This document shows, in pieces, positions 461-8,051 of a DNA stretch of 39,920 nucleotides. The translations under genes and the position numbers were made by a program. Origin of the DNA: a virus (Duplodnaviria > Caudoviricetes). The notes beneath the pieces are model-generated. The model was not told where the DNA came from, made no database searches, and was given only the letters and a program-made list of their open reading frames with translations. The stretch is from the IMG/VR virus record IMGVR_UViG_3300038797_000052, positions 1 through 39,920 of that record; one strand, 5' to 3'. Position 1 is the stretch's first letter, and each line of letters opens with the position of its first letter.

Positions 461-637
461 TTCTTGCTCGCGGCGCCACCTGCGGTGGCTACGGCCATGC
501 CATGCCGATACATGAAACTTTTACTCGCGAAGTGACATCAGTGGTAAATGCGGACTATATTTCGCATATTTACCCATTCTCCAAAGGGCAACGTACCCGG
601 GGTGGTGGGGGCACAGTTTTTAGGACGGAGCTTCAAT

Positions 638-1384
638 ATGAGTTTGCCCGATATCAAGGAATGGCACGTAGAAACGTTAAGGCTGACCGTATTTAGCATT
701 GAGCCGATCACTGGAGTGGGTCGTGATTGGTGGAAACAGGCCACGAAATTTGATCCTGAGACTTCGGTCAATCGGCCCAGTGCAGGCGAGTATTTCGAGT
801 CTGGTGAGTTTCTTGGTGGTCAATTTGAACTGAAGACTACTTTTAATCGAGTGGATTGGAGTCTTTCGTTTCCTTTTACTGATTTGCCCGGTGCGCCTAA
901 GCCCGAAGATATACACGCTTTAACATTCAAGTGGCTAATGGCTTTCAAAGCGTGGCTTACAAATTTGGATTTTAATTTGGCAAGGATTGCCGCTGGAGCT
1001 ATTTTCATAAAAAAAGTTCCAGATGTTTCGGCAGGCAATCATCTTATAAGTGACTATTTGCATTTCGTGAATGTCAATGATGGTTGCGAGTTAGCTGATT
1101 TGATGATTCAGGTTAATAGTCCTGCGGTATTTAAGGCCGTAGAGGGGATGCGTCATAACCGGATCGTCAAGTTGGGCGTGTTAGAGCGGCAAATGATTAC
1201 GATCGGGCCGGCAGGCTTTCCAAGTGCGATATCTGATACCGTGCTGCGCTGTGAATTTGATATGAGTTCGCCTCTCAGTTATCAGCGTGCGATATGTGGG
1301 AATGAATCTTACGAATTATTTAGTGAGATGGTTGACTCGTACCTTTCAATACTCAAGGATGGGATAATTGATGAACAGACTTAG
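638..1384 (+). CDS. Uncharacterised cargo protein A (248 aa; alpha/beta pattern loosely resembling TIGR04255-type proteins)
   Basis: AT-rich ORF. GGAG at 627-630 precedes ATG 638 (ORF track starts at 548). Family resemblance is tentative. Confidence 0.8.
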   Translation: MSLPDIKEWHVETLRLTVFSIEPITGVGRDWWKQATKFDPETSVNRPSAGEYFESGEFLGGQFELKTTFNRVDWSLSFPFTDLPGAPKPEDIHALTFKWLMAFKAWLTNLDFNLARIAAGAIFIKKVPDVSAGNHLISDYLHFVNVNDGCELADLMIQVNSPAVFKAVEGMRHNRIVKLGVLERQMITIGPAGFPSAISDTVLRCEFDMSSPLSYQRAICGNESYELFSEMVDSYLSILKDGIIDEQT

Positions 1385-1931
1385 TGATTTTTCTGAAGTA
1401 TATTTTACTTCTACTGAGGCAAGTACCGGTGAGTGGTTCTCTGCTGTTTCGAGTGCTGTGTGTACAAAGTTCGAGGTGTTGTTTGAGGCGCCAGTATGTA
1501 ATGACTATCTTTCAAATTTAAGTGTTTTAACCCATGCGTTCGCAGATGCTGGAAAGCGTAGTGTTAGGTTGAGCAATAACAATACGATTTTTTCTGATTG
1601 GGATCGCTTAGAGGACTCCCTCGCAGATTATAGCTCTGCTCGGGATCTACTCTATCATTGGGAAAAGCATGCTAAGGGGCGTTTCGCTTCAGTGTTTATC
1701 GTGTATTTCGTGGAAAAAAATTTCTCGAGGATGAACTTGGATGTGATTAACTCCCTCCTTCTTACTGCGTCTCCGCACCGCCTCACTGAATGGTCTATGG
1801 TAGCGCTGCTTAGAGCGTCATACTCGGCGAAACATTTGCTGCCTGGATGGGTGGTGTTTTTTGAAGGCGTTAAAAAAGAACTCAAGGATAACGAGCGGGC
1901 TCCCAAGTTGCTTGCGGGACTTGATTTGTAG
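1371..1931 (+). CDS. Uncharacterised cargo protein B (186 aa, helical C-terminal domain)
   Basis: Overlaps the end of gene A by 14 nt; purine-rich RBS before ATG 1371; AT-rich. Confidence 0.78.
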   Translation: MNRLSDFSEVYFTSTEASTGEWFSAVSSAVCTKFEVLFEAPVCNDYLSNLSVLTHAFADAGKRSVRLSNNNTIFSDWDRLEDSLADYSSARDLLYHWEKHAKGRFASVFIVYFVEKNFSRMNLDVINSLLLTASPHRLTEWSMVALLRASYSAKHLLPGWVVFFEGVKKELKDNERAPKLLAGLDL

Positions 1932-1959
1932 TTCGTCGAAGTTGTTGGCAGGGAATCGC

Positions 1960-2625
1960 ATGAAGATAGAGTTGAAAAGGTATGATGTTGAGTTGCCGGA
2001 TAACGTGAATCTTGCGCTAGTGATCACGGGTGATACTAGCGAAGGCGGACAGCGGCACACTGGGTTTGTAGTGAAGGATTTTTTTGGTGATGTCTGGCTT
2101 TTTCACCTCGCTTCAAACAATTTATATATTAAAAGCATGTTCACCTCGCGCTACCACTATCTTCTCGTTCCCTCGCTTGAACCTGAGACTGAGCTAGTTA
2201 TAATTTCATTTCTCGCTGTTCTGTATGGCGTTACCGAGGGTAAAGTACCTTACTCGATTGGCTGGGATGAGAAGCAATACTTCGACTCCGAGGGAGGATT
2301 GGTCTTAGGTGATCCGGGAGATGGATTTACATGCGCAACTTTTGTTCTAGAGTCTTTCAAGCGATACGGAATGGATATGGTGGCGCGCGAAACCTGGCCG
2401 TTATCTGCAGAGGATTCTGTTTGGCAGGATAAAATTATAAGACTGGTAGATTTGAGCCCCGAGCAATTCTTAGCACAGGTTGAAAAAGTGGGTAAGTACC
2501 CTCGTTTTCATCCGGAACAAGCCTTGGGGGCGGCCCACCATTTCACCAATTTTCGCCTTCCATACTCCATTGTTCGTCCGGCCGGAGAGGAGGTTGTTGC
2601 AGAAATGGCCAGATTGAGGGCTTAG
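1960..2625 (+). CDS. Cargo protein C: putative permuted papain-like (NlpC/P60, YiiX/LRAT-type) enzyme, 221 aa
   Basis: Motif order QRHTG ... FHLA ... VPYS ... GFTCATFV places His before Cys. AGGGA RBS before ATG 1960. Confidence 0.7.
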   Translation: MKIELKRYDVELPDNVNLALVITGDTSEGGQRHTGFVVKDFFGDVWLFHLASNNLYIKSMFTSRYHYLLVPSLEPETELVIISFLAVLYGVTEGKVPYSIGWDEKQYFDSEGGLVLGDPGDGFTCATFVLESFKRYGMDMVARETWPLSAEDSVWQDKIIRLVDLSPEQFLAQVEKVGKYPRFHPEQALGAAHHFTNFRLPYSIVRPAGEEVVAEMARLRA

Positions 2626-3620
2626 TTTTCGAAGTTCTTCAGATGTGTTAAGTCTGGGGGCACGCCGATGCGCATCTTACGTAATCTAAGGTAGCGTTGG
2701 GTCATCTTCGCGTCCGTGTGCCCCCCAAGTTTCTGAGCGTCGTTCCCCTGATCGTCGGTGTCAGAAAGAGACTTCGCTCTCAGATCGTGAAGGCTAGCGT
2801 CTTCTACGCCGGCCTTCCTGCAGCTGATCGCGAAGGCATCTTTCACCGAGCTGTAGTGAACTGGCTTACCGCCGCGCGGAGAGCAGAACAACGTGAGCCC
2901 TCGAATCTTCCGAGGCAACGCCTTCACCCGGGTGATCAGCTCCTCCAGATCGGGCGTCATTTGCACCAGCAGCCTGGCGTTCGTCTTCTCTTGCTTGAAG
3001 GCGATACCCTCGGCGCTGATATCCGCCAAGCGTATGGCCAAGACGTCACCAATGCGCTGACCGGTCAGGTAGCACATTTCGTATATCACTCGCATGTTGT
3101 CGCTGGAGTTGGCGCAGATTGCTTGGAATTCACCGTGGGTGATATAGCGATCGCGCTTGTGTTCTAGGTGGCGCCGGACGCCGATGCATGGATTAGAGTC
3201 GACGATCTGCTGCTCTAGCGCGAAGGTGAAGACCGCGCGCAACACCGAGATAACTCTATTCGACATGTTTGGCGTATCCGCCATGTGCATCTTGAGCGCG
3301 ACGACGTGCCGTTGCAGGACCTCACGGGGTTCGAAGTCAGCGAAGGTTTCCTTCAGACGGTCGCATGCGGCCTCGTACTGCTTGAGGGTGTTGGGCTTGA
3401 GGGGCGGCTTCGTTCTTGTGCGCATATGCTCGAGAGCATCGTCGATCAGCTTGGGCATCCCGCCTTGGCTGCCCTTGTCCAACAGCTTTGCGTACTCGGC
3501 CAGCGATGCCTGAAAGTCGGTGCCCAGACGCAACCACTTCCCCTTGCGTACCAGGTAATAAGCACCATGCTTTTGGTACATACACGCCGGCAGGTGCCGG
3601 TCCTTCTTGCGCGGACGCAT
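2622..3620 (-). CDS. int: Phage tyrosine integrase
   Basis: Catalytic motifs TGQRIGD (R), KQEKT (K), LHDLRAK (HxxR), LGGHT (H), TQRY (Y). Confidence 0.97.
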   Translation of the reverse strand: MRPRKKDRHLPACMYQKHGAYYLVRKGKWLRLGTDFQASLAEYAKLLDKGSQGGMPKLIDDALEHMRTRTKPPLKPNTLKQYEAACDRLKETFADFEPREVLQRHVVALKMHMADTPNMSNRVISVLRAVFTFALEQQIVDSNPCIGVRRHLEHKRDRYITHGEFQAICANSSDNMRVIYEMCYLTGQRIGDVLAIRLADISAEGIAFKQEKTNARLLVQMTPDLEELITRVKALPRKIRGLTLFCSPRGGKPVHYSSVKDAFAISCRKAGVEDASLHDLRAKSLSDTDDQGNDAQKLGGHTDAKMTQRYLRLRKMRIGVPPDLTHLKNFEN

Positions 3621-3862: not shown

Positions 3863-4639
3863 TTAAATTCCGTGTCGCGACACGTTTTCGTTATTCGCTG
3901 TTGGTGTCGCAGCCTCTTCCCAATCCCAGCTCAACTTCGGATCTGTTGGCGGGATAGTCTCGAGCGTGTGCAGATTCAGCAGCGTGAAGTGCCCATCCAT
4001 CCAACCGCCGGTGTCAATGTGGTAAACATTGCCGAGGACTGCCGGACGCCGAACCGGCGTGTGACCTACCACGACGGCGCGCACGTTCTTGACCCCTTGG
4101 CGGTTCTCGTTGGTGATCCGCTGGCGCGACCACTGACACATGGCTTCTACTTGCTGGCGACCATGGAGGCCTCGCTCAAGCTGGCTGCGCAGCGCGTCCC
4201 AATCGTCGAATGGTATGTCCGCGTGGACGACGCCTATCAGTCCAGCGGAGGTTTCCACCTCGATCACCAGCGGCAAGTCGGCCAGCAGTTCCGCATAGCA
4301 TCCGCGCTCGACGAAGGAACGGCCGTACAGCCACGCGCCTCCATTGATCAGGTGCATATCTCTCATCCGCCCGCCCGGATCTGCCCGGTATGCATCGACC
4401 ACCATCTGTTCATGGTTGCCGCGCACGGCGTGAAACCATGGCTTGGCGAGCCAAGTGTCGACCTCGGCAGACTCTGGCCCGCGGTCAACGAGATCGCCAA
4501 CGCTGAACAGGCGATCGATCTCAGGATTGAAGCCAGCAGCATCCAGCGCCTGTTGTAAGCGCGTGAAGTGGCCATGCACGTCGCCGACGGCGAAGTCCCT
4601 GCCGGTGGTGTTGATTCCAAAATTCTGCAATCCGCTCAT
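3863..4639 (-). CDS. Ser/Thr protein phosphatase (lambda NinI / PrpA-like metallophosphoesterase)
   Basis: Motifs GDVHG, GDLVDRG, RGNHE, VHA, GHT and IDTG. Confidence 0.93.
   Translation of the reverse strand: MSGLQNFGINTTGRDFAVGDVHGHFTRLQQALDAAGFNPEIDRLFSVGDLVDRGPESAEVDTWLAKPWFHAVRGNHEQMVVDAYRADPGGRMRDMHLINGGAWLYGRSFVERGCYAELLADLPLVIEVETSAGLIGVVHADIPFDDWDALRSQLERGLHGRQQVEAMCQWSRQRITNENRQGVKNVRAVVVGHTPVRRPAVLGNVYHIDTGGWMDGHFTLLNLHTLETIPPTDPKLSWDWEEAATPTANNENVSRHGI
3877..3910. repeat. Dyad element GCGACAC-N20-GTGTCGC, copy 1
   Basis: Same arms and spacing as 17213-17246; the two copies share the 14-mer GTCGCGACACGTTT. Confidence 0.75.
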
Positions 4640-5373
4640 GTGCGGACTCCTGCAATTGCTGCCAGCTCTGCCACCAGCGCATCGGTGCGCCCGTAGAACT
4701 TGCCGGCGTCTTCATTCACGAATCGCTCGATCACGCTGGCCACCGCCGCCGAGTTGGATAGCCCGCGCAGATCTGTGTATGCCTTTGGCGCATCTGTCGA
4801 TGGGGCGTGCACCAAGGCGCCGGCCTTGATTTGCAGCGTGCGCACCGGCCGAACGGCCTTTTCTTTGCTCGTCCAGTTTGTGTCCGGTGTGCACCAGGGC
4901 AGCATGTGGAGACACCAGGCACTGCCGGCGGATGACTTCTGCGTGCTCGACCAATATTCGCGTAGCGCGAAAGCCTGGGCTGGCCCGCCCGCACCATCTG
5001 CAGGCCAGTGCTTGCCCCACGGCTCGAGCTGTAGCAAGTTGGCTCGCATTACCTGCAGCTCCTCAATTGCCGGGATGTGCCAGCCCCGGTGCCCACGGAT
5101 CGACATGGTCAGCACCTTCTGCGCGATCGCGCTTCCGGCCTCGGCCATTGCCCGGGTGTTCGCCAAACCGTCGTGGTATGACTTGCTGCCGCGAACGCTC
5201 AGTCGCGGGCCAGTCCGGTCCCACCATTGCGCGGGCATTTCGAACCCGCGACCGGCGTCGATGAGCGCGTGCTCAGCGCCACCAAAGAACATGCGGCCGG
5301 CGAAGAAGCCGCCGGCGAATGGCTGGCCGATTGCGGGCAGTGCCGCTTGGGAAATTTCCAGACGCTTGGTCAT
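4636..5373 (-). CDS. DUF1566 (Lcl C-terminal-like) domain phage protein
   Basis: Motifs IGQPFAGGFFAG, DGLANTRAM, GWHIPAIEEL, YWSSTQ and VRPVR. Confidence 0.85.
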   Translation of the reverse strand: MTKRLEISQAALPAIGQPFAGGFFAGRMFFGGAEHALIDAGRGFEMPAQWWDRTGPRLSVRGSKSYHDGLANTRAMAEAGSAIAQKVLTMSIRGHRGWHIPAIEELQVMRANLLQLEPWGKHWPADGAGGPAQAFALREYWSSTQKSSAGSAWCLHMLPWCTPDTNWTSKEKAVRPVRTLQIKAGALVHAPSTDAPKAYTDLRGLSNSAAVASVIERFVNEDAGKFYGRTDALVAELAAIAGVRT

Positions 5374-5576
5374 TTACCCTCTCCCGACTCACCTACCGCG
5401 CGCAGCTTGAGCGAGATCCCGCAGGCGCCGGCCAACTTGGCCAGCTCGCTGACTGTGGTGCTGGGCTCTTGAAGGGCCTGGCCGAAACGAACGAGGCGGG
5501 CGCCCAGGCTTGCAAACTCGTTACCCGCGGTGACGCTCTCACGGTCGCGTTCCAGGAAACTGTTCGGGCTGTTCAT
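5370..5576 (-). CDS. Hypothetical phage protein (68 aa)
   Basis: 4-nt overlaps with both neighbours in the leftward operon. Confidence 0.7.
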   Translation of the reverse strand: MNSPNSFLERDRESVTAGNEFASLGARLVRFGQALQEPSTTVSELAKLAGACGISLKLRAVGESGEGK

Positions 5577-5857
5577 AGATTGAACCTCTCATCCTGTGGG
5601 AGCGGAGTGGCTACCGAAGGCTTTTTCTCAGTCACTGAACTGGCCTGAGACGCCCTGCCTGCCTCTTGCTCGGCTATGCCGTTCCGTGGGAGCGAACTAT
5701 CCGGCAAGCAGCTGATGCCGCCTTGATTGATGCTCGAGTAAATCCAGCAGGTTGCGCCGCGTTCCGCGTCGTGAAAGACACTGACGCCGTATGGCAAGCG
5801 CTCGGCGCTGGCTTGACCAGCGATCAGCAGTAGGGAGGCAATGATCATTCCGCGCAT
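5573..5857 (-). CDS. Hypothetical exported protein (signal peptide, CW...GGISC motif)
   Basis: Hydrophobic N-terminus ending in ASA; AGGAG RBS; coupled to neighbours. Confidence 0.7.
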   Translation of the reverse strand: MRGMIIASLLLIAGQASAERLPYGVSVFHDAERGATCWIYSSINQGGISCLPDSSLPRNGIAEQEAGRASQASSVTEKKPSVATPLPQDERFNL

Positions 5858-6258
5858 GGCGCGAACTCCTGCTCACCTGGGTTCTGGCGCATCGCGAGGT
5901 CGATCTCTGCGTCGAGATCTCGCTCCGTCAGCATGTTGCCCTGTCGATCTCGCGGCAGCAGATCCTGCCGAGGAGTGTTGAGCGCGACGTCGCGCAACCA
6001 TTCATAGCGACGAGCGTTCGCCACCATTCGCACGCGCTCATCAATGTGAAGAGAGGGGTGGGCAGCATTTGCAAGAGCATCGAGCAACAGCTGCTGGCGC
6101 TTCTGACCATCTGTGTACTGTCGAACAGCCTGAACGAATACGGCATTCATGCTGCGATCACTGCCGTTGGCAATTGCCTCGATCTCAGCGCGCAGTCCGT
6201 CTGGTAGGCGCGCAACAAATTTATCGGCTGTTCTTGAATCGAATTGTTTGATGCTCAT
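5845..6258 (-). CDS. Arc-family ribbon-helix-helix DNA-binding protein
   Basis: ADKFVARLPDGLRAEIEAIA...RSMNA signature; GGAG upstream of ATG 6258. Confidence 0.85.
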   Translation of the reverse strand: MSIKQFDSRTADKFVARLPDGLRAEIEAIANGSDRSMNAVFVQAVRQYTDGQKRQQLLLDALANAAHPSLHIDERVRMVANARRYEWLRDVALNTPRQDLLPRDRQGNMLTERDLDAEIDLAMRQNPGEQEFAPCAE

Positions 6259-6368
6259 GGATGAAAGCTCCTGCGATGATTTGTTTTCCAAACGTGGGAG
6301 TGGTGAAGCTTTTTTCAGGCCGAGCGAATCCCGGCCGCGGTGTTGGCTTTCGCGAAAATCAGGTTGGG

Positions 6369-6749
6369 TTAAGCGGTGAGGGCAACCTCGATGCGGCGCA
6401 CGGCCACGCGGGTTTCAATGCGGCGCTCGCCTGGGCGGCGGATGCGCCCAAACTGTTCGGTGTTAGCTTGCTGGGCAGTCATCACCAAGCACAGCAGGAC
6501 CACGAGGGGCGCGATGATCTGGCGCTTGAATGCCTCCAGCACAAGGCCGCGCATCGTCTTGACACCAAGCTTGAAGCGGGCGCTTTCAAGACGTTTTTCA
6601 GCGGTGGCTGGACTGATACTCATTGCACGACCAATTTGCTTCACCGTCATATCGGCAGCAGCCCACAGGGTGGCTTCAAGCTCCCGAGGAGCCAGGCCCA
6701 TCTTGAGGTTGCCCTGCCAGTTGCCGGCGGTCAGAGTGCTGGTGGTCAT
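6369..6749 (-). CDS. LuxR-type HTH phage regulator
   Basis: LAPRELEATLWAAADMTVKQIGRAMSISPATAEKRLESARFKLG; first gene after the leftward operators; GGAG RBS. Confidence 0.85.
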   Translation of the reverse strand: MTTSTLTAGNWQGNLKMGLAPRELEATLWAAADMTVKQIGRAMSISPATAEKRLESARFKLGVKTMRGLVLEAFKRQIIAPLVVLLCLVMTAQQANTEQFGRIRRPGERRIETRVAVRRIEVALTA

Positions 6750-6785
6750 TTCGTGAAGCTCCATGCTGGGTGCGATGGAGTAAAA

Positions 6786-6825
6786 ATTACCAAAGGTAAT
6801 TATTTATGTAAATACCTTCGGTAAT
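6786..6825. promoter_or_regulatory. OL operators (two sites) in the pL region
   Basis: ATTACCAAAGGTAAT (6786-6800) and AATACCTTCGGTAAT (6811-6825) match the OR sites. Confidence 0.8.
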
Positions 6826-6840
6826 ATTAATTTTTACTGG

Positions 6841-6875
6841 GCAAAAAACACCGCTCAACAGCGGCGGCTTTTTGC
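6841..6875. terminator. Putative bidirectional terminator downstream of cI
   Basis: A-tract, CCGCT/AGCGG stem, T-tract. Confidence 0.55.
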
Positions 6876-6877
6876 GA

Positions 6878-7654
6878 CTAGGGTCTGGATACCCTCACAC
6901 TCCCTCCGCGCCATACCACTCTTCCTATCAAGGGGAGATCGACGGCTGCTGAACTCGGGATCACCTCGTCGGGGAATAGCTGCTTGTCCTGGTTGTCGCA
7001 TCTGAGCGTCCAGTTTCCAGAAATTTGCTGCGCTACCCGCCTGACGCTAGTCCTGCCATCAGGCATGCGGACGAGATAGACCTCACCATCCTTTAGGGCC
7101 GGCTTGTACGTGTCAATCATGACCACGTCGCCGGACAAAATATGTGGGGCCATACTGTCGTCGCCGGCGTAAACGATGTTGAGACTGCTAAACGAAACTC
7201 CCATTTCTTGGAGCCAGCCGCGCCTGAACACCATGCCCTCGGTCAACCCGCGATGTTCGTCGTTCACGTTCGGAACGAAAGAGTTATCGTCTAAATACTG
7301 CGGTATCAGGACATATTGCTCGCGTGGGGGGGCATCAATGATGCGAGCGGCTTTAGCCCAGGTTGTTCGAAATGAGTCTGCGGTGACGCGCGACGACGCA
7401 ACCATCTCGATGATCGCCGCTAGACGCGGACTGAAGTCAGAAACCGGCACATCCAAAATTTTGGCGAATGCAGCCGCGATCTCGGTGTTCAGCGGATTCA
7501 CACCGTTCAGATAGTGAGAGACAGAGCTTTGGTTGATGCCGAGTTGCTCAGCCAGTTTTTCCTGAGTCAGCTTCAGCTGTTTCTTTTTGGCTGTGAAAAT
7601 TGCCTTCAAGCGTAGGCATTCTTCTTTGCGGTCAGCAGGTAATGGTTTTTTCAT
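6878..7654 (-). CDS. cI: CI-like repressor (XRE HTH plus S24-like domain with degenerate catalytic site)
   Basis: LTQEKLAEQLGINQSSVSHYLNG HTH; DSM and IGRVVWRGG in the S24 domain; divergent from cro. True start is likely ATG 7654, not 7972. Confidence 0.93.
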   Translation of the reverse strand: MKKPLPADRKEECLRLKAIFTAKKKQLKLTQEKLAEQLGINQSSVSHYLNGVNPLNTEIAAAFAKILDVPVSDFSPRLAAIIEMVASSRVTADSFRTTWAKAARIIDAPPREQYVLIPQYLDDNSFVPNVNDEHRGLTEGMVFRRGWLQEMGVSFSSLNIVYAGDDSMAPHILSGDVVMIDTYKPALKDGEVYLVRMPDGRTSVRRVAQQISGNWTLRCDNQDKQLFPDEVIPSSAAVDLPLIGRVVWRGGSVRVSRP

Positions 7655-7665
7655 CAGTCGATAAT

Positions 7666-7729
7666 ATTCCCATCGGTAATAGTTTAACAAATGCCAAAGG
7701 TATTGCTTTGTGAAAATGCCAAAGGTACT
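7666..7729. promoter_or_regulatory. OR operators (three sites) between cI and cro
   Basis: ATTCCCATCGGTAAT (7666), AATGCCAAAGGTATT (7690), AATGCCAAAGGTACT (7715), spaced 24-25 bp apart. Confidence 0.8.
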
Positions 7730-7760
7730 ATTTTGGCAAAGTTCTGTTTGGAGATTTGCT

Positions 7761-8051
7761 GTGAAACATACCCAGCTGAAAGATTTCGCGAAGGCTCGCG
7801 GCCAGCCAGAGGCAGCGTCTCTTTTGGGAATTACCCAAGGTGCGCTGAGCAAGGCATTACGCGTGGGCCGCGACGTTTTTGTCATCGAACACGCTGACGG
7901 CAGGTTTACCGCTTTTGAAACCAAGAGCTTTCCATCGCGGCTCAGCTCAAATCCGTGTGTTGCCCCGACCATGAGCCAAAAGATACGCGCCTCATTGCCG
8001 CTTGAAGAGTCTGGTGAACCATCTGTTTATCTATCCAGTGCTGGGCAGTGA
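7761..8051 (+). CDS. cro: Cro-like repressor
   Basis: GTG start after GGAG; GQPEAASLLGITQGALSKALRVGRDVFV...KSFPS is lambda-Cro-like. Confidence 0.9.
   Translation: MKHTQLKDFAKARGQPEAASLLGITQGALSKALRVGRDVFVIEHADGRFTAFETKSFPSRLSSNPCVAPTMSQKIRASLPLEESGEPSVYLSSAGQ
8023..8038. promoter_or_regulatory. Putative LexA (SOS) box CTGTTTATCTATCCAG
   Basis: CTG-N10-CAG with an AT-rich core, matching the gammaproteobacterial SOS consensus; lies in the 3' end of cro. Confidence 0.65.

Follow-up and report, generated by a model that had tools for sequence, protein, structure and literature searches.

Three-part defence modules and the A-B-C cassette

Among described systems, those closest to the element considered here are the toxin-antitoxin-chaperone (TAC) defence systems CmdTAC (PD-T4-9), HigBAC and MqsRAC, whose genes stand in the order toxin, antitoxin, SecB-like chaperone and whose antitoxin carries a C-terminal chaperone-addiction (ChAD) tail (10.1101/2024.02.24.581848; PMC11618068). 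Another is DS-42 (PRO1), an E. coli trio of DefensePredictor encoding proteins of 238 amino acids (aa), 190 aa and 363 aa, the last an MBL hydrolase. It is marked as defensive and replicated and gave weak protection in one assay row, with a -log efficiency of plating of 1.1 and smaller plaques on phage Bas1; the same source counts TIGR04255 proteins among its predictions of novel defence genes (PMC13092281). Here we analyse a cassette of three genes, A, B and C, in the Caudoviricetes record IMGVR_UViG_3300038797_000052 of IMG/VR (39,920 nt, GC 58.1%; the whole of this stretch is called the window below). A first-pass annotation of its letters had proposed the cassette as a new anti-phage system with a permuted papain-like enzyme.

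638..1384, + strand: gene A, 248 aa; curved antiparallel beta-sheet with helices in the model; putative chaperone/sensor for the B leader
1371..1931, + strand: gene B, 186 aa from the ATG at 1371; variable leader (about residues 1-85) and conserved C-terminal domain; putative antitoxin
1960..2625, + strand: gene C, 221 aa; predicted circularly permuted papain-like NlpC/P60 enzyme (H33, H49, Y98, C125); putative toxin/effector

A, B and C are real, AT-rich, coupled genes. They were annotated as three co-oriented, tightly spaced reading frames, and the coordinates agree: all three lie on the + strand, A and B overlap by 14 nt and 28 nt separate B from C. Their GC content is 44.4, 44.6 and 47.0%, respectively, against 58.1% for the window, and GC at third codon positions is 44-48% against 74% in the neighbouring integrase gene, int.

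The resemblance to the TAC systems lies in three coupled prophage genes, in a variable and probably unstructured extension of the middle protein, and in what would be a common component for different toxin-antitoxin pairs. The shared gene comes first here, is about 250 aa long and has no SecB match among those listed, whereas the TAC chaperone gene comes last; the variable part of B is N-terminal, while ChAD lies at the antitoxin C-terminus; and C is papain-like, whereas the passages of the TAC reports consulted mention no papain-like toxin (10.1101/2024.02.24.581848; PMC11618068). Given the other parts and the reversed order, the cassette is not a TAC member by definition. DS-42 is similar in layout, with three co-oriented genes, a 238-aa protein of unknown nature, a 190-aa protein with a Ser/Thr-rich start and an enzyme last. 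Its effector is an MBL-fold hydrolase, whereas C belongs with the permuted papain-like enzymes (PPNE), and its second gene looks different; the likeness of DS-42A to A was judged by eye only (PMC13092281).

Window A, B and C have no Pfam or NCBIfam match, and in scans with PADLOC-DB 2.0 (2023) neither the 149 homologues of C nor 34 homologues of A and B produced one. B itself produced one weak row in the PADLOC scan, ZorD at E 0.015. ESM Atlas gave unnamed clusters only. The annotation had not recognised the trio as any named system, which the PADLOC result bears out; the novelty is somewhat lower than supposed, since DS-42 shares the layout and differs in its effector. Literature was covered as PMC open-access and bioRxiv full text. 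Within that scope we found no description of TIGR04255 function, of a permuted papain-like or NlpC enzyme in anti-phage defence, or of a tripartite antitoxin with a disordered N-terminus, and no report of a permuted papain-like enzyme as toxin in toxin-antitoxin or anti-phage systems. YiiX together with phage defence returned only unrelated material, and the words papain and NlpC are absent from the main text of PMC13069673. The cassette is apparently undescribed and is best filed with three-part toxin-antitoxin-like defence modules. Two other candidates were considered. P4 gop-beta-cII is ruled out by a comparison of layout only, as its cII gene faces the other way and the gene sizes do not agree. 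For the three-hypothetical-protein system of P2/P4 hotspots, only the PADLOC scans bear on the question, and these were negative.

The three genes travel together. We compared 39 loci with C: 22 phage, plasmid or viral-contig records, L006 (numbers with L denote loci), 13 genome loci, two from the slot survey described below, and the window, with L009 a duplicate of L006 and L016 of L018. A B homologue lies directly upstream of C in 35/39 and an A gene is present in 34/39, of which 21 are of the window type and 13 of the TIGR04255 type. The exceptions are L012 and L013, cut by contig ends, L023 and L050, where C stands solo, and L022, where B-C follows an unrelated first gene. No B match was found outside C loci. 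The profiles behind these counts were partly built from these same proteins; 12 B proteins outside the alignment also match, with E between 1e-11 and 1e-36 for 11 of them and 2e-54 for the duplicate L009. Lack of co-occurrence had been named as a sign against the annotated unit, and co-occurrence is what these counts document. The order A-B-C, on which the annotation also placed weight, is conserved; defence-type neighbours adjoin some loci, in a survey without control.

Distribution is sporadic. C occurs in 8/401 Pseudomonas and 7/401 Pseudomonadota genomes, with the seed genome counted in both, and window-type A in 4/401 Pseudomonas genomes, all four with C; a narrow-pattern scan of genome contigs gave one locus. 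Named carriers include Acinetobacter, Psychrobacter and Rhizobium plasmids and Burkholderia and Acinetobacter phages. On two plasmids of 6.6-6.9 kb the cassette is a main cargo, and integrase or resolvase-like genes adjoin it in several loci. In a phylogeny of 34 C proteins, which excludes L009, L013, L016, L023 and L045, loci with the same A type tend to group together, and the window type changes at least two times under well-supported branches. These observations support A-B-C as a conserved mobile unit on prophages, plasmids and islands.

The predicted enzyme and the two genes before it

A profile search places C in a family of 1693 clusters at 50% identity. We aligned window C with four close homologues and with 144 of the 150 top-ranking sequences listed; in this set of 149, H33 of the motif RHTG and C125 of GFTCATFV are invariant in 149/149, as are R182 and P185. 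H49 of FHLA is present in 136/149, with D, N or E in 13, and Y98 of PYS in 142/149, with F in 7. Catalytic roles were assigned by spacing against H49/E64/Y115/C128 of YiiX (PMC3142127). Permuted NlpC/P60 enzymes have four catalytic positions (His, polar, Tyr, Cys) and hydrophobic S1 pockets; the H33/H49/Y98/C125 set matches these positions and hence fits such an enzyme (PMC3142127).

The AlphaFold2 model of C (pLDDT 95.3) points the same way. Its best structural match is YiiX (Z 9.2, root-mean-square deviation 3.8, 148 residues aligned), followed by BcPPNE (Z 7.9), TseH (6.4), RID (5.7), Aichivirus 2A (5.4), a deSUMOylase (5.0) and PLAAT4 (4.8); these seven share a common family. Foldseek gave no row at E <= 0.001. 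Pfam, including Peptidase_C92 (YiiX/YebB) and LRAT, gave no match at E <= 0.1 for C or its 149 homologues, and nothing significant was found against PDB sequences. C does match the unannotated phrog_11836 (E 1e-11). Sequence conservation and model together support C as a papain-like NlpC/P60 enzyme that is circularly permuted and whose catalytic residues are conserved. The annotation had read the His-before-Cys order in this way and had treated loss of either residue among homologues as telling against it; both are invariant.

C resembles YiiX (2if6), BcPPNE (3kw0) and the T6SS toxins TseH and Tox-Act1 in fold, in the His-before-Cys order and in the His/polar/Tyr/Cys set. It is unlike the YaeF/YiiX-like enzymes in that it has no Pfam family, forms a family of its own, bears no sign of export and stands behind A and B. 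Tox-Act1 shows that a permuted NlpC/P60 enzyme can be a phospholipase that is toxic to bacteria and is paired with an immunity protein; it works from the periplasm (PMC12994826). The N-terminus of C has no hydrophobic stretch, and the highest 19-residue hydropathy, 1.54 at residues 79-97, falls on a helix inside the model. By hydropathy (no predictor was used), C probably lacks a signal peptide, as had been noticed in the first reading.

Of B, the C-terminal part of about 100 residues is conserved (L147, R148, W160, G183). The N-terminal part varies from 56 to 138 residues across homologues, contains 16-36% Ser+Thr and has a median identity of 11% against 22% for the C-terminal part. Composition and divergence together suggest that this leader is disordered. 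B had been described as helical, which does not hold throughout: the N-terminal ~85 residues are variable and Ser/Thr-rich. Against PDB sequences B gave nothing significant.

The model of A (pLDDT 88.6) consists of helices and one large, curved sheet of antiparallel strands. All of its structural matches have Z below 8: AdoMetDC at 7.2-7.3, arginine kinase and McsB at 6-7, and TBP at 5.5-5.9. SecB is absent among the matches listed, and the listing does not exclude it. Foldseek gave only low-TM curved-sheet matches, and neither window-type nor TIGR04255-type A found anything significant among PDB sequences. Conserved residues are R15, R71, D73, R116, N160, N174 and D208.

Window A does not match the TIGR04255 model at its curated cut-off. 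Of the A-position proteins in C loci that were scanned directly, 4/16 match TIGR04255 far above that cut-off. Comparing the window-type A profile with the TIGR04255 set by hhalign gave a score of 22.5 (P 0.014, probability 3.2%), higher than 20/20 block-shuffled controls (maximum 17.3) and than 8 unrelated comparisons (9.7-14.1); the alignment is colinear, with E, R and D-x-D positions in common. A shallower pair of profiles gave P 0.31. The profile comparison and the same gene position ahead of the same B and C families make it likely that window A is a remote relative of TIGR04255. Of the annotated description, alpha/beta and loosely TIGR04255-like, the remote kinship is probable; the family cut-off is not reached.

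TIGR04255-led trios and a possible defence switch

This probable kinship would place the cassette in a wider company. TIGR04255 occurs in 26/251 Pseudomonadota genomes (29 loci, L121-L149) and in 0/14 control genomes, and tight trios were parsed in 24/29 of these loci, those left unparsed being L130, L139, L141, L142 and L146. The parsed trios contain 10 gene-2 families and 9 gene-3 families. Every gene-2 family pairs with one gene-3 family, and one gene-3 family pairs with two gene-2 families; B and C are present in two of the loci. Most second genes start with a variable low-complexity stretch, as judged by eye. Most third-gene families have no Pfam match; one third gene is PemK/MazF (E 1e-18). 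The gene-2/gene-3 pair with most loci (nine) weakly matches the PADLOC candidate PDC-M32A/B (E 6e-8 to 0.004), and R, S and H are invariant in the third gene of this pair. Of the 375 positions of the PDC-M32A model, the match to the sister gene 2 takes in the final ~100 only; none of the window genes A, B and C matches PDC-M32, which receives only a bare mention in the open-access literature. By their motifs, third genes of these trios may be ADP-ribosyltransferase (ART)-like (the pair with invariant R/S/H), MazF-like or HEPN-like.

A shared gene 1 with strictly matched genes 2 and 3 fits a toxin (C), its antitoxin (B) and a shared first component (A), and each TIGR04255-led trio is a candidate toxin-antitoxin pair in this sense. 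The annotation had A and B jointly sensing or regulating. That can be refined: they do not look like two equivalent sensors, as gene 2 tracks gene 3.

Several suggestions can be made regarding what the cassette does. The one we incline to, with modest confidence and by analogy, is a chaperone-addicted, toxin-antitoxin-like defence switch. C would be a toxin kept inactive by the C-terminal domain of B, a domain that is conserved and found only beside C, which suggests the inhibitor. The Ser/Thr-rich leader would make B unstable unless bound by A, much as the chaperone-addiction tail does in TACs, at the opposite end of the protein. On infection a phage product would compete for A and displace B; B would then be degraded, C freed and the infected cell stopped. 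The logic copies that of CmdTAC and HigBAC with other parts (PMC11618068; 10.1101/2024.02.24.581848). The least certain step is the substrate of C. By family, a fatty-acyl ester or amide bond reached from the cytoplasm would be most likely, with C acting as phospholipase, acyltransferase or amidase; a protein target would be the alternative.

If this is correct, many toxin-antitoxin pairs would have TIGR04255 in common as a module for sensing or stabilisation, a mechanism for DS-42 would suggest itself, and the C family would add new effector chemistry to phage defence. More tentatively, and without insisting on it, we suggest that TIGR04255-like proteins may form a second, SecB-independent class of chaperone-sensors at the head of a large group of reversed TAC systems, which would hold the unstable N-terminal leaders of many unrelated antitoxins and release the toxin that follows. 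The present locus would then be the branch with a cytoplasmic permuted papain-like enzyme, which upon infection would attack lipids or acylated proteins of the host cell itself. Being small (2 kb) and with clear catalytic residues, the cassette is directly testable.

A number of points weigh against the switch. A has no recognisable likeness to SecB, the genes run in the opposite order to those of TACs and the leader is N-terminal. The link of A to TIGR04255 is weak, at the hhalign values given above. PADLOC, as said, has no match for the homologues of any of the three proteins, and other occupants of the slot in which the cassette lies gave no convincing system match there either, so the slot alone is no proof of defence. 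Searches of PDB sequences and profiles did not confirm the ART-like, MazF-like and HEPN-like labels: two sister third-gene alignments found nothing significant in the PDB, and no alignment was obtained between the PemK member and the larger MazF-like group. The defence neighbours, chosen by eye and without control, are suggestive only. The hint of transcription described below comes from one study, strandless and without a DNA control, and a contig does not prove a single transcript. Finally, two C genes (L050, L023) stand without B, and an unguarded lethal toxin would hardly be tolerated.

The same solo genes lend something to a different view, in which A, B and C form an obligatory three-protein defence complex; C would be harmless alone and would act on a phage component by deacylation or protein cleavage, A and B serving it as sensor and adaptor. 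The strict three-gene linkage and the deSUMOylase-type peptidase among the fold neighbours of C would suit this. We nevertheless consider it unlikely, as a PemK/MazF toxin occupies the third position in sister trios and the matching of gene 2 to gene 3 is what one would expect of a toxin and its antidote.

Alternatively, B and C could still be antitoxin and toxin with A an enzyme, a stripped-down guanido-kinase-like fold that modifies the B leader, for instance by phosphorylation, and so sets the stability of B. The longest structural alignments of A are with the catalytic domains of arginine kinase and McsB (~160-170 residues, deviation ~4), A keeps the conserved Arg, Asp and Asn listed above, and B leaders are rich in the Ser and Thr such an enzyme could modify. 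Matches of Z below 8 may, however, reflect the common curved sheet only, AdoMetDC and TBP scoring alike; hhalign against one guanido kinase gave no signal (P 0.79 and 0.48); and few of the conserved residues of A appear in the TIGR04255 set (E18, R129, D210, D212). We regard an enzymatic A as improbable.

About as doubtful is a pure addiction or maintenance module, whose role would be to keep prophages, islands and small plasmids stable and not to act against phages. Its place as a main cargo of the two small plasmids and the adjoining integrases or resolvase-like genes are what one would expect of such a module. Yet of 48 relatives with the same slot, 31 have it empty and persist; a trio of the same layout, DS-42, protects against a phage (PMC13092281); and some copies adjoin type I restriction-modification, AbiEi, DUF4238 or E1-E2/multi-ubiquitin genes. 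An accessory operon that remodels lipids or lipoproteins and has no part in conflict, suggested by the many permuted NlpC/P60 enzymes that work on such substrates (PMC3142127, PMC12994826), is scarcely credible given the sporadic occurrence (8/401 Pseudomonas genomes), low GC and mobile contexts of the cassette and the replacement of C by unrelated third genes.

The cargo slot, transcription and neighbouring genes

The remaining features belong to the surroundings of the cassette.

461..2621, no strand: stretch taken up by cargo in the mutS-integrase slot; ~70 bp in empty-slot relatives
532..561, + strand: sigma-70-like promoter candidate upstream of A, 10/12 consensus matches
2622..3620, - strand: tyrosine integrase, PF00589 above cut-off; convergent with C; context, outside the cassette

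The cassette had been placed between an att-like site and the integrase, in a slot of the kind that often carries defence genes. The integrase is indeed there, convergent with C and overlapping its stop codon by 4 nt; an att core repeat was not found inside the window. On the other side lies a minus-strand gene with its 5' end at 409, which is mutS-like by its sequence. Similarity to empty-slot relatives stops near 460, which would set the left border at about that position. The C-terminal tail of int (window 2622-2688), where it overlaps the stop codon of C, differs from that of empty-slot relatives.

Relatives of this integrase were found on 69 viral contigs, and the mutS-like 5' end falls within the locus in 48/69. 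The slot is empty in 31 of these 48 (39-78 bp between int and mutS) and holds cargo in the other 17. The commonest filler, in 5/17, is an AT-rich family of ~280-298 aa and unknown nature on the minus strand (L052:5994-6851, L054, L060, L064, L079), for which Pfam and PADLOC scans gave no convincing match. Lone zeta-toxin-like genes fill three slots, two of them scanned (L055:6179-6973, L071, L102); an SDH/ClpP-like protease with a small upstream reading frame fills two, one scanned (L068, L074:6008-6919); and a three-gene DUF4325 (STAS-like) operon fills one (L088:5991-8106). A divergent second A-B-C trio sits in the slot at L059 and also at L062, where mutS falls beyond the contig end. Such variety of fillers across relatives marks the slot as an exchangeable cargo site, in line with the annotation.

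The promoter candidate is a consensus match only, one of 7 sites in a scan that gave 3.3 +/- 2.0 in shuffles. RNA sequencing of soil, from one study, yielded a single contig spanning 561-3031 at depth 28, with 4006-8000 uncovered in the same run. A second run of the study gave small pieces within the cassette; lack of cover past 4006 in either run does not mean silence. The contig start at 561 coincides with the predicted -10 element, though a contig edge cannot show a start site. As the contig extends to 3031, transcription of the cassette may run antisense into int.

For neighbours, 43 proteins from flanks and slots, chosen by eye, were scanned with PADLOC and Pfam. Type I restriction-modification adjoins the trio in L044; AbiEi, DUF4238 and PDC-S06 are neighbours in L042, and two PD-T7-4-like genes in L047. 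On a Rhizobium plasmid (L002:594-2891) a cluster of multi-ubiquitin, DUF6791-ThiF (E1-E2) and DUF6527 genes lies directly upstream of the trio.

Three loci show unusual arrangements. At L041:7801-9886 the trio stands between mutS and repressor plus tail-like genes, with the integrase absent; this presumably corresponds to the mutS-linked tailocin region of Pseudomonas. The first gene at L022:4585-5235 encodes ~155-216 aa with the look of a tandem small alpha/beta domain and is possibly a replacement for A. At L050:2001-2738, C without A or B follows immediately after a YhgA-like transposase gene and may be a solo or remnant copy.

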